DNA of 64,000 nucleotides, from the NCBI GenBank assembly GCA_964016885.1, contig OZ024740.1, forward strand, positions 240,250,001 through 240,314,000. The letters are read 5' to 3'. Shown here piece after piece: positions 12,665 through 63,570 of the stretch. The translations under genes were made by a program, and so were the position numbers. The number at the start of each line of letters is the position of its first letter. Positions within the stretch are counted from its first letter, which is position 1. A model generated the notes under the pieces. That model worked only from the letters and a program-made list of their open reading frames with translations. It did not search any database and was not told where the DNA came from. This DNA comes from Eledone cirrhosa (Eukaryota).

Positions 12665-13001
12665 TATAGAAATTTAAGAGTCAAAGTCAGTCTTGCAACA
12701 TATGTACAAACTTTATTTGCATATTACAATTATTTCGATATCGATCAGCTCAGATCGATATCGAAACAAATCAAGGTGACGGCCCGACATTTTTCCACAT
12801 ATCGTCAGATATACGAGCTTATATGTGCAAAGATACATTTAAACTTTGCACATATAAGCTTGCATATCTGACGAGATGCCGAAAAAGTTTCGATTCCGTC
12901 ACCTTGATTGTACCATGGGTGCACGATATCGAAGCAATTGTAATATGCAAATAAAGTTTGTACATATGCTGCAACACTGACTTCGACTCTTTTAATTCTA
13001 T
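12665..13001. mobile_element. Fold-back double-hammerhead element (diverged arms, 11-nt spacer 12833-12843)
   Basis: Arms are reverse complements. Plus HHR 12860-12950: TTGCATAT-CTGACGA-GAT..ATC-GAAG-CAATTG-TA/ATATGCAA. Minus HHR 12717-12816 has CTGACGA..GAAA-TAATTG-TA. Confidence 0.8.
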
Positions 13002-13365
13002 TTACACTCTACACACTACAGCTGTAACTCTGGAATACAACTCAAACGAAACAGACCTCGTGACAGCATTGAGTGCTTCGAACGGCCGGCCGCCTGTAAG
13101 TGTTTTTTTTACACATAACTGAAACATAACCCCCCCCCCCACGAACGTTCGGATCTAGCTATCGAAACGGCCGGAGCTCAGCCGTCGGGGTCCTGACCTT
13201 TTTCCTATTACCCACTCTACTAGCCTAAGTATTGAGTACTCTTTGGCGTTGTGGTCCACCTGGCATTTTACCACACCCTCTTTGTTATACATATATATAT
13301 ATATATATGTATAACAATATATATATATATTTATATATATATATATATATATATATATATATATA

Positions 13366-14100
13366 TGAAACCTGACAAATCGGATGACGCGTGTTCCCTC
13401 CTCAACTGTCCGATACGTCGTATATAGCATCGAATGTGATAGGTGTAACGAATTCTACATCAGTAGCACCATCCGGCCATTACACGTCCGGATCAAGGAA
13501 CACATCAACACAAGGGCCTCGTTTTTCCGGAAACACGTAATCAAAGACGGAAGGCCCTTTGTCACAGTGTTAGTAACTGAACGCAACGGAACACAACGTC
13601 GGCAGTTTAAGGATCAAGGAGTCACTCTGGATAAAACGTCTCGGACCACAAATCAATAATCGATCCGAGAGAAATGAGACGAAATAGCTGGTGTAACAAC
13701 AACAACACACACACAGTGACAATCGAGCGATTGTTATTGTGTGTATATCGTGCCCACCACCCACCAACCGACAGACAACAGACAGGCAGACTACTACCAC
13801 TATGCCTGCCACTGACAGAACTCAAGTATTTGACAGCGATGATACGTACACACAAACCCACCACCACCACCCCACTACTCTAGTGTAGAAGAACTGCTTC
13901 GAACTTTATCTGACCGCAACAATTCCGCGCGCACATGCGCCTGATAGAGTATTTCAGTTGTACGCACACGGCAAACAACAAAGGCCACGTGTTGTTCTTC
14001 TCCGACACAACCTTTTTTCCCTCGGAAAAATCCCTGTTGATGGATGTGAAATCCGAAATATAGGAACTATTAAATCGCTTCCAAGGTAATTCTATCTCGT
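13366..14100 (+). mobile_element. Penelope-like element 3' fragment: GIY-YIG relic plus 3' region with minimal hammerhead
   Basis: VVYSIECDRCNEFYISSTIRPLHVRIKEH is a PLE GIY-YIG pattern. 14031-14065 reads TCC-CTGTTGA-T-GGAT(GTGAA)ATCC-GAAA-TA-TA/GGA (one core substitution). Preceded by (TA)n. Confidence 0.8.
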
Positions 14101-14119
14101 ATTATTATTTTTTACTTGC

Positions 14120-14590
14120 CATTCTGAGTTCAAATCCCGCCGAGGTTAACTTTGCCTTTCATCCTTACAGGGTCGATAAAATAAAGTACCAGTAATACAC
14201 TGGTAAATTGCTGGCCTTGTGCCTAACGTAGAAACAATTATTTTTTACACTAATCTCGTATTATTATTTTTCCCGCCAAGGTTAACTTTGCCTTTCATCC
14301 TTACGGGGTCGATAAAATAAAGTACCAGTAATGTACTGGGATAATTGCTGGCCTTGTGCCAAAAGTAGAAACAATTATTATTTTTTACACTAATAGAGCG
14401 GTGGATTGGCAGTATCGGTAGAGGGTCGGACGCCATGCTTTGACGCATTGAGTTACGGCCCTTGTCAATCTGAGTTCAAATCCCGCCGATGTTAACTTTG
14501 TCTTTCATCCTTACGTGGTCGATAAAATAAAGTACCTGTAATACACTGGAGTAATAGCTGGCCTTGTGCCAAAAGTAGAAACCAATTGTT
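14120..14590 (+). mobile_element. Three tandem SINE copies or partials
   Basis: Same SINE consensus as 4162-4580. Confidence 0.85.
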
Positions 14591-14766
14591 ATTTTTTACA
14601 CTTTTCCTACGTTCTTTTACGCTCTCTACGTCTCTTTCTACGCTTCCCCTTACATCTCTCTCTCAATACCACGTGATGCTGTTACCCGGGGGTTTACCCA
14701 TCTGCATCGTTGAGGCTTCCAAAACGACTGTTTATATATATATATAATATATATATATATATATAT

Positions 14767-14955
14767 ACGTTATTCCGGGTTGAATCGGAGGTAACCACAG
14801 TAAGTAAGGTACTCAATACATTGCAGAGTATAAAAGTTTTAATATAGATGAGATTCTACAGGACTAGAACTGTTTCATTCTTTAGAAATCATCAGTGATT
14901 CCTGATGATTTCTAAAGAATGAAACAGTTATAGTCCTGTAGAATCTCATCTATAT
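14767..14955. mobile_element. Minimal fold-back double-hammerhead element flanked by (TA)n
   Basis: Palindrome 14842-14955 with a 6-nt spacer. Plus HHR 14897-14945: GATTC-CTGATGA-TTTCTAAAGAAT-GAAA-CAG(TTATAGTC)CTG-TA/GAATC. Mirror core on minus. One-sided tail 14767-14841. Confidence 0.85.
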
Positions 14956-61208: not shown

Positions 61209-61398
61209 TGTGGATTGGCAGTATCGGTAGAGGGTCGGACGCCATGCTTTGCAGCAAAGAGTTACGGCCCTTTCCATTCTGAGTTCAAATCCCACCGACG
61301 TTAACTTTGCCTTTCATCCTTACGGGGTCGATAAAATAAAGTGCCAGTAATGTACTGGGATAATTGCTGGCCTTGTGCCAAAAGTAGAAACAATTATA
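61209..61398 (+). mobile_element. SINE copy
   Basis: Dominant SINE consensus. Confidence 0.9.
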
Positions 61399-61674
61399 TA
61401 TATATATATATGTGCGTGTGTGAGTATGTATGTATGTATGTATGTATGTATATATGTATGTATGTATGTATGTATTAACCCGCTACATACACATGTACAC
61501 AAATCTCTAAACTAAAATCTAAAGAACTACTAATACAAAAATATAAAACATAAATAACCCATCCTAAAACATGCTATAAATATTATTCCACCTTTATTAT
61601 TTCTATCAGGTTGGGTGATGGATTAGCAGTATCGCTAGAGAGTCGGACCCATGCTTTGTGGCTTAGAGTTACGG

Positions 61675-61855
61675 CCCTTTACAATCGTTTCAGAAGGTTG
61701 ATTGATCATGATAAATCGATGTATTCACTAGTTTCCTCAGAAAGGAAGATAGATCTGCAGTATTGAGATTAATAATATATAGTTGCATAACTACTATCAT
61801 TTCGTCACTATATCGATTTATCATGATCAATCAAACTTCGGAAACGATCGTAAAA
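61675..61855. mobile_element. Inverted-repeat element with hammerhead motif, fused to a SINE head
   Basis: Inverted repeat 61678-61722 / 61810-61855. Minus 61675-61745: CCTTT-CTGAGGA..GAAA-CGATTG-TA/AAGGG. Plus arm has GAAA-CGATCG-TA. Confidence 0.6.
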
Positions 61856-62309
61856 CAATATACTGATTAAGTACCAATCTTAGCAGTTTTCATTGTTCAT
61901 CACATATATATATGACTCTGTAGTTCGTTTAGATTGCACAATGGAATCTGATGATGAAAGCCTACTAGAAAAACAATACCTTTGAACACTTGATCTCGTT
62001 GGAATTATTACTTCAGGACGACTTGGAGTTCTAACAACGTTATTGTCTCTGCCGCAAACGGGTAGATACATGTGTGTGTGTGTGTGTGTGTGTGTGTGTG
62101 TGTGTGTGTGTGTGTGTGTGCGTGTGCGTGTGCGTGTGCGTGTGCGCGCGCGTGCGTGCGTGTGTGTGTGTGTGTGTGTGCGTGTGTGTGTGTGTGTGTG
62201 TGTGTGTGTGTGTGTGTGTGTGTGTGTGTGTGTGTGTGTGTGTGTGTGTGTGTATGCGTGTGTGTGTGTGTGTCTGTGTATATATATATATATATATATA
62301 TATATATAT

Positions 62310-62670
62310 CCAGGGAGTGTGACATGAAGTTACTGTAGGTTCACCCAGGTGAGCACTCAATGTTCACGTCTGTAGCGAGGTGTAGAGCTAGACAGAGTGT
62401 AATATAATAATACAAGGACGATTTGTTATGTCTTCATTACGTCTATTGATTGGTGACGCACGTTTCGCTGTTGATCGGCTCATGGTTCGATATGTATCGA
62501 TCTGGTGCGACTCTGGAATCAAAAGCTTGTCATTACAACGACGGGCTTTTGATTCCAGAGTCGCGCCAGATGGATACAGATCGAACCTTGAGCTGATCAA
62601 TAGTGAAACGTGCGTCACCAATCAATAAACGTAATGAAGGCTTAATAAATCGTCTTTGTATTATTTTATA
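62310..62670. mobile_element. Fold-back element flanked by (TA)n with a degenerate hammerhead-like motif
   Basis: Imperfect palindrome ~62401-62668 with ~8-nt loop. Arm consensus TGA-GCTG(ATCAA)CAGC-GAAA-CGTGCG-TC; the CTGANGA box is decayed. One-sided tail 62310-62400. Confidence 0.75.
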
Positions 62671-63044
62671 TATATATATATATATATATATATATATATA
62701 TATATATATATAAAGTGTGCAGTGCTGGGCTGGGGAGACCATAAATCAAGAGAGTACTCTATGCATGATAAGAAGCATCGTAGGTATAGACGAAGGTAAA
62801 AAATCTACCGCGACAGCTAGTGGCTACGGCTGGTATTCGGCAAGCCTTTCAAGGATGTACTGGGGTATGAAAACATTTTCTCGAATTTATGTATGGAGAA
62901 GATTAATTTCAACCTCCACCGCAACCGCCAAACGCCGTCGGGTTTTTATCTTCCTCCCCCTCTCTCTCTCTCTCTCTCTCTCTCTATATATATATATATA
63001 TATATATATATATATATATATATATATATATATATATATATATA

Positions 63045-63570
63045 GGAGGTGAGTTTTATTGTAGTACAATAAAGCAATGCAGATATCGGATAAGAAGCAC
63101 TCTACAGTTTGTAGGACTGGAGTATACATAATATATAAGATCAAAAGATGGTTAAAGGAGTTCCATGTATTTTATTATGCGCATTTCAAAAACAAACATC
63201 ATCATGCAATAATATTTGTGTTTTCATCAGATAAAACAGGAGAACATGATATGAAGGCTAAAAAACACTTGTGGATAGTGCAGTTTTAAATCAACATATC
63301 AAAAACTGAAACGACTATATTTCTCTCAATAACCACATGGTAGCAATCTTTTCGATCATTAGTGCACTATTTATATTGATTTCAAACTCGTAAGAATAAA
63401 GAAAATGTTGATTTAAAACTGCACTGTCCACAAGTGTTTTTTAGCCTTCATATCATGTTCTCCTGTTTTATCTGATGAAAACACAAATATTATTGCATGA
63501 TGATGTTTGTTTTTGAAATGCGCATAATAAAATACATGGAACTCCTTTAACCATCTTTTGATCTTATATA
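63045..63570. mobile_element. Fold-back double-hammerhead element flanked by (TA)n, 107-bp spacer
   Basis: Arms 63131-63297 and 63405-63570 are near-identical. HHR plus 63465-63533: GTTTTAT-CTGATGA-long stem II-GAAA-TGCGCA-TA/ATAAAAT; minus 63169-63237. Tail 63045-63130. Confidence 0.9.

Follow-up and report, generated by a model that had tools for sequence, protein, structure and literature searches.

In the genome of Eledone cirrhosa (3.0 Gb), we analyzed a stretch of 64,000 nucleotides (G000:C1:240250001-240314000, hereafter the window) that carries six palindromic elements, at positions 12665, 14767, 17001, 53336, 60261 and 63045. These palindromes are very probably stubs of autonomous Penelope-like elements (PLEs): for four of the five families that they represent, the arms and tail are the pseudo-long terminal repeat (pLTR) and tail of autonomous elements of the same genome encoding a reverse transcriptase (RT) and a GIY-YIG endonuclease (EN). 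The palindrome probably arises anew at each insertion. The elements are new families of a known kind, real in their features and ordinary in their identity; on the best reading, the novelty is the record kept in the junctions between the arms, which we did not find in print.

The families are labelled A (17001 and 53336), B (14767), C (60261), D (63045) and E (12665). The six palindromes from five families listed in the original prediction, a reading of the letters of the window, were all present, with ungapped arm identities of 130/152 at 12665, 48/49 at 14767, 163/164 at 17001, 175/177 at 53336, 240/250 at 60261 and 159/160 at 63045. Its statement that they lack an open reading frame (ORF) also held, the longest ATG-started ORF inside any of the six being 70 amino acids.

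The arms of four families belong to elements encoding RT and GIY-YIG EN

We compared the arms and tails with further copies across the genome. In family A, locus L033 carries an inverted pLTR, an RT ORF, about 1.3 kb 3' of the EN and then a pLTR with the tail, and L031 and L032 have a similar layout. In family C, EN codons in the same orientation lay at most 1.5 kb upstream in 19 of the 29 non-self best matches, obtained with an arm query that, as for family A, favours long matches. The family C EN scored above the Pfam GIY-YIG cut-off (24.4 bits vs 22.6), its RT was recognized as RVT_1 below the cut-off, and Pfam assigned no family to two family A proteins. The tails of families B and D were located by exact 30-mer matching, with 8,483 (B) and 10,402 (D) matches genome-wide. 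Among the first 30 of the 10,402 family D matches, an EN was found 1.2 kb upstream in L223, L227, L238 and L243, and the tail continued into a 5' untranslated region and ORF in four loci; in L244, an ATG lies about 85 nt beyond the tail end. The family B arm was linked to RT-EN in L175 and L195, among 40 loci from the first 100 listed of the 8,483. The parentage of family E is indirect and the weakest link of the five: decayed Hydra-like ORF pieces, inverted relative to the arm, adjoin 2 of 41 loci (L254 and L118, 74% alike). Longer copies of a further, hammerhead-free family, F, likewise reach RT and GIY-YIG.

Based on their protein motifs, we assign families A, B and D to the Hydra clade and family C to a Neptune/Nematis-like group, using the linker and motif definitions of PMC8557442. 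A CxCx5C linker precedes the C-terminal GIY-YIG EN in A, B and D, with CxxC and CxH/CxxC near the EN end and around its E/N residues, and these three families are flanked by (TA)n. Of the N-terminal Hydra motifs, DKT and one like RWK, family D has DKT and RWI; the translated pieces of A and B stop short of the N-termini. In family C, the linker ahead of the EN is CX4CxxC, which fits the Neptune/Nematis definition CX2-5CxxC. Elements of families A and D measure about 3.4-3.7 kb, and family B appears to carry about 3.3 kb after the ORF. This family B DNA (L175:750-3500) is mostly (TG)/(TA) microsatellite, with at least 1.4 kb common to L176.

The derivation from PLEs and the RNA-based movement put forward in the original prediction, as opposed to miniature inverted-repeat transposable elements (MITEs), were supported. 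A MITE or foldback DNA transposon was rejected given the one-sided tail, the variable length and the RT-EN elements found as partners.

Junctions differ from copy to copy

Copy lengths are continuous from about 100 bp to full length, and the shortest two-armed units are the most frequent form in the samples taken here. With a tail-only query in family A, 17 of 29 non-self loci carried an inverted arm whose end lay between -85 and -89; the remaining loci showed two tails (2), an inverted upstream piece (4) or neither (6). The copies therefore display the trait of EN-containing (EN+) PLEs, namely 5' truncation with an adjacent inverted copy and an optional tail. We observed 24 distinct junctions in 26 two-armed family B copies and 12 in 13 family D rows, two of which represent one insertion, and family A junctions also vary. 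A first family B query spanned the junction, so that its 40/40 two-armed matches are biased and were not taken as a rate. With a junction-bearing query, one junction recurred in six and another in four of 30 family B loci, but the outer ends and subfamily variants of these loci differed. The fixed internal structure of a non-autonomous family copied as a unit was not found in these samples.

The two arms of a copy share their variants. In family A, 109 non-consensus bases occurred in both arms, compared with 20 and 38 in a single arm. In 29 of 32 copies, the partner arm was more similar than the median of the other copies; it was strictly closest in 13 and tied in 12. At L035:120-2105 (G000:C4:109531419-109533404), a tailed family A arm (Hydra) stands head to head with a tail-less family C body (Neptune-like RT-EN); this chimera represents either two different elements at one break or neighbours fused by deletion.

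Arm ends and the proposed starts of two cDNAs near a capped 5' end

In 15 of 56 two-armed copies (7/17 in A, 5/13 in D and 3/26 in B), the tail-less arm extended beyond the tailed arm on the 5' side by 20 nt or more, an excess that sometimes comprised kilobases of ORF. Therefore, simple fold-back copying is insufficient without later deletion. The outer end of the tail-less arm lies on a TA run encoded by the element, of 5 nt in A, 5 in B, 7 in D, 4 in C and 3 in E. Positions starting such TA runs make up 2.4% in A, 0.3% in B, 0.7% in D, 2.1% in C and 5.6% in E.

The consensus of the initiator (Inr) is BBCABW. Inner ends lay at most 2 nt from this motif in 10/13 family D copies and in 9/26 family B copies (16 within 10 nt), and a TATA box was observed about 30 nt upstream in B and E. 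In family D, 17 of 32 arm ends coincided with the +1 A; in 11 of the 17, G replaced the C of the template (P = 6e-4 at p = 0.25). Family A ends at the +1 A had a G in 4/4, three of them ambiguous. The cap test was run on A, B and D; the anchor of family E was too short for its cap table to inform. An extra G in full-length L1 insertions is a copied cap (PMC11702581). We also considered the hammerhead cut site as the arm end and rejected it, as no cluster of ends was found there and the end hotspots lie upstream of the ribozyme.

Proposed origin of the palindromes and alternative explanations

Each palindrome is probably a single insertion of an autonomous EN+ PLE, formed anew on landing. As for how this happens, we favour, with somewhat less assurance, a mechanism with two cDNAs and run-off at the cap. 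The element protein would cut both strands of a (TA)n tract, and each broken end would prime its own cDNA, from a distal start, which would yield the tail, or from a proximal start, where the element-encoded TA run would pair with the target. Both cDNAs would copy one RNA, or two RNAs of one donor. The mRNA would begin at the Inr within the 5' pLTR, and many cDNAs would run off its capped 5' end; such cDNAs would therefore measure no more than 130-280 nt, and a base derived from the cap may be added to them. Other cDNAs would end prematurely, or begin at the 3' pLTR and include the ORF. The cDNA 3' ends would then join head to head through microhomology or filler, with both hammerheads as passengers. 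We lean slightly towards reading the stubs, present in thousands, as the fossil record of an unresolved step of PLE insertion, involving a dimeric protein, two fixed starts and cap run-off. If this is true, a single cause accounts for the inverted pLTR, for the tail and for the surplus of short copies, and most copies stem from the 5' end of the transcript, opposite to LINEs.

Several observations weigh against this reading. In 7 of 32 copies, an arm of some other copy was a closer match than the partner arm, a further 12 being ties, and the long inverted arms could result from later central deletion of a longer palindrome. The link between the family B arm and RT-EN spans about 3 kb of low-complexity DNA, and a same-orientation ORF contiguous with the arm was not seen in the 41 family E loci. 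We infer the capped start site from motifs and junction bases. No TATA was found at -30 in A and D, 2 of the 11 family D G's and 3 of the 4 family A G's are also explicable as microhomology with the partner arm, and family B is mixed, with a G in 5/8 ends at the +1 A. The commonest family B end lies 1 nt downstream of the +1 A, preceded by T in 25 of 29 cases in a query-biased set, and the second proximal end of this family has no TA run. In family D, the hotspot sequence CATATG is palindromic, a property that might promote joining at this site.

Among the alternatives, the one that keeps the same parents is the least improbable, though still unlikely. The mirror arm would come from one self-priming, folded-back cDNA, and unequal arms from later central deletion. 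This would account for the mirrored variants, and many junctions are themselves short palindromes; it also counts in its favour that palindromes are well known to lose DNA from their centre. Self-priming has also been proposed for Adineta Penelope (PMC3846280). However, a copy cannot outreach its template, as the 15 copies described above do, inverted arms with ORF stand beside tailed arms of 120-560 nt (L135, L234 and L249), and fold-back copying leaves unexplained why the arm stops at a fixed place, on a TA run that the element encodes. Two independent insertions in opposite orientation into one (TA)n tract, followed by deletion fusion or homogenisation by gene conversion, appear highly improbable: PLE ends are indeed stacked in (TA)n tracts and the L035 chimera is of the expected kind, but the pairing is nearly always of a tailed with a tail-less arm of the same family and variant, through a junction without TA. 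That the palindromes are fold-back artefacts of library or assembly has a negligible chance of being correct. No public contig covers the whole 63045 element, yet tails are fixed and family-specific, point differences separate the arms, fillers and linked ORFs are present, and public contigs join 63296-63301 to many positions of the other arm (in one study, of unrecorded run type, which may be the source).

The original prediction went further than PLE derivation and proposed a distinct protein-free class, in which double-hammerhead palindromes would be copied as a unit by PLE proteins acting in trans. As the main origin this is largely refuted, and we consider it very unlikely: the arms belong to autonomous elements and junctions are mostly unique in unbiased samples. 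Short copies are abundant, as the exact tail 30-mers of B and D show, some family B junctions recur, and non-autonomous PLE derivatives are known (PMC8557442; retrozymes). Nevertheless, the recurring junctions occur on different outer ends and variants, as for a repeatedly hit hotspot, the hammerhead cores are predicted to be buried in hairpins, a hammerhead-free palindrome at 35931 shares the plan, and just four of the six elements have two complete hammerheads. Under the preferred reading of one insertion per palindrome, a genome with thousands of young junctions allows sharp predictions, namely that the start is capped and lies at a given base, that two ends are primed and that TA pairing occurs at the proximal start. 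The stubs also matter for annotation, as they mimic MITEs or miRNA hairpins and are liable to misfiling (many sub-threshold miRNA matches appeared in an Rfam scan); if transcribed, they would make long double-stranded RNA.

Hammerhead ribozymes

We searched the window with a custom type I descriptor (stem I, CUGANGA, stem II, GAAA, self-complementary helix III and UH) and obtained 12 matches, 10 of them within the six elements. In 40 dinucleotide shuffles of the repeat-masked window, the mean was 0.05 matches and the maximum 1. The claim of the original prediction of a hammerhead in each arm, one per strand, stood for four of the six elements, which have a complete hammerhead on both strands, and failed for 14767, where a strand of stem I is lost, and for 12665, where GAAG replaces GAAA. 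Helix III is self-complementary in families A, D and E, a layout that corresponds to the dimer type in PMC4209133. The putative type I hammerhead with short or palindromic helix III in the pLTR is as defined for EN+ PLEs. In predicted folds of whole elements, the CUGANGA core was paired at 7/7 positions in 10/10 hammerheads, inside hairpins of -90 to -431 kcal/mol; a transcript spanning the whole palindrome is therefore unlikely to cleave itself. No hammerhead was found among the best 150 of 273 matches of an Rfam scan of the window, these being sub-threshold hairpins.

Other hammerheads or cores of PLE-like families lie outside the elements at 47798 (+), 48246 (-), 59030-59170 and 59838; those at 48246 and 59030-59170 form one family with the long stem II of the E type.

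Layout of the elements in the window

A one-sided tail was observed in all six elements, 12665 included, where five had been predicted; the right flank of 12665 is a C run rather than (TA)n. In this family E element, the tail-less arm (12669-12844, minus strand) has the sole complete hammerhead (core 12808, long stem II), and the tailed arm (12845-13129, plus strand) has the hammerhead with GAAG and a tail of about 125 nt (13003-13129). The family B element has a tailed arm at 14768-14895 (minus), with its tail at 14768-14844, which begins at CTGATGA with the 5' strand of stem I gone. Its tail-less arm at 14897-14950 (plus) begins 1 nt past the Inr A and carries a complete hammerhead (core 14902) with an atypical U.U at the base of stem II. 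Family B has two proximal ends about 11 nt apart (14836-14846), one alone lying on a TA run, and a lone tail-less arm of this family at 692-768 is fused to the final 30 nt of a tail.

The first family A element consists of a tailed arm at 17001-17255 (minus; tail 17001-17091, core 17188) and a tail-less arm at 17262-17433 (plus; core 17337); the latter differs from the 53336 copy at 12 positions, and its partner arm mirrors these differences. In the second, the tail-less arm at 53337-53513 (minus; core 53433) has its outer end at the proximal start (CG|TATAT), and the tailed arm at 53514-53788 (plus; core 53601, tail 53698-53788) begins 3 nt past the Inr A. The family C element has a tail-less arm at 60264-60526 (minus; core 60450) and a tailed arm at 60528-60838 (plus; core 60604, tail 60778-60838). 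In family D, the tailed arm at 63046-63300 (minus; tail 63046-63137, core 63230) ends internally exactly on the Inr A (63299), followed by an extra G of the sense strand (63300), and the tail-less arm occupies 63405-63564 (plus; core 63472). Between them lies a junction filler of 102 nt (63301-63402), foreign to this element and present without arms in a low-depth public contig of 562 nt. It looks like sequence, apparently of the host, captured from another locus during joining; no match to it was found among the loci compared here, no genome-wide search having been made.

The list of elements sharing this plan was incomplete, a perfect palindrome without CTGANGA core having been missed. This family F palindrome (35931-36227) has arms identical at 127/127 positions, a 43-nt tail (36185-36227) and (TA)n flanks, and is very young, with at least 10 identical arm-plus-tail copies. 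In longer family F copies, a stretch resembling a hammerhead lies upstream, its core being non-canonical. As for the degenerate members named in the original prediction, 3017-3247 is indeed decayed, its outer arms matching over 45 bp, with a homologous copy (L178) that has a hammerhead-like core, and 19141-19448 is an older relative of family A with a single short arm and a broken core. By contrast, no core was found for 61675, and the palindrome at 62310-62665 (arms 88%, tail of about 96 nt at 62310-62405) belongs to a further family with just the GAAA half of a hammerhead-like motif and no CTGANGA in either arm.

Neighbouring repeats

Decayed PLE coding pieces were observed in the window at 13414-13693 (GIY-YIG, family F-like) and 54286-54865 (Hydra-type RT thumb). 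An abundant SINE-like repeat forms inverted pairs or small fold-backs at 52937-53286, 22814-22945, 36684-36800 and 40261-42090, with no CTGANGA match; it is distinct from the PLE palindromes. Tandem units with a short unique block between (TA)n occur at 63565-64000 and 19449-19760, with units of 136-192 and 73-81 bp, respectively.

Comparison with known systems

EN+ PLEs are already known to have inverted pLTRs and a tail and to target (TA)n (PMC3846280, PMC8557442, PMC8969392), and the origin of inverted pLTRs and tails has been named as open (PMC8557442, PMC11167929). In the literature covered by our search, which leaves aside older reviews, supplements and many subscription papers, we found neither a paper linking the inverted PLE arm to a second primed end or the short copies to cap run-off, nor a published palindromic class of non-autonomous PLEs. 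The palindromes resemble the EN+ PLE insertions of PMC3846280 and PMC8557442 in the 5'-truncated copy with an adjacent inverted truncated copy, the tail at a single end, the pLTR hammerhead and the microsatellite targets. The tails differ, with about 43-125 nt here vs 30-40 reported there, and self-priming had been put forward as the cause, whereas the arm lengths here favour two cDNAs. Families A, B and D share with the Hydra clade of PMC8557442 the C-terminal EN, the CxCx5C linker, canonical hammerheads and (TA)n targets. That clade is reported as generally below 3 kb, with few families outside Cnidaria; A and D here measure the 3.4-3.7 kb given above, and B and D each have more than 8,000 exact tail matches.

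The layout as such, of which the original prediction knew no description, has been published, as have dual hammerheads on opposite strands. In Schistosoma, pairs of minimal hammerheads, one per strand and separated by 100-700 bp, were ascribed to truncated PLEs (PMC4209133), in what is, in the accessible text, a one-sentence mention without analysis of arms, tail or junctions. Non-LTR retrozymes (bioRxiv 10.64898/2026.07.22.740005) are also protein-free, with a type I hammerhead and a relation to pLTRs; they consist of tandem direct repeats with hammerheads on the same strand, while the elements here are inverted, with one core per arm on opposite strands and the cores predicted to be sequestered, and membership in that group was rejected.

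Purified PAc (Poseidon from Anolis), a PLE protein with a predicted dimeric form, cleaves and extends both strands; its two RT start sites define the tail, and the hammerhead is dispensable (PMC11167929). An AT-rich target and start sites near the RNA 5' end are common to PAc and to the families studied here. The PAc start sites fall within the ORF and have no homology with the target, and the accessible text of that paper does not derive the inverted pLTR from a second primed end. By contrast, the ATG of family D follows both starts, and all five families have a TA match of 3-7 nt at the proximal start.

Twin priming of L1 was reportedly described by Ostertag and Kazazian in 2001. Both ends of the target prime cDNA, the second primer annealing internally by microhomology (PMC9148063, PMC11702581). 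The head-to-head joining of cDNAs and the cap-derived G at complete 5' ends are alike in the two systems. In L1, the inverted part lies upstream and for the most part does not overlap the rest, whereas here 60-125 nt separate the two start sites, so that the cDNAs would overlap and give a palindrome.

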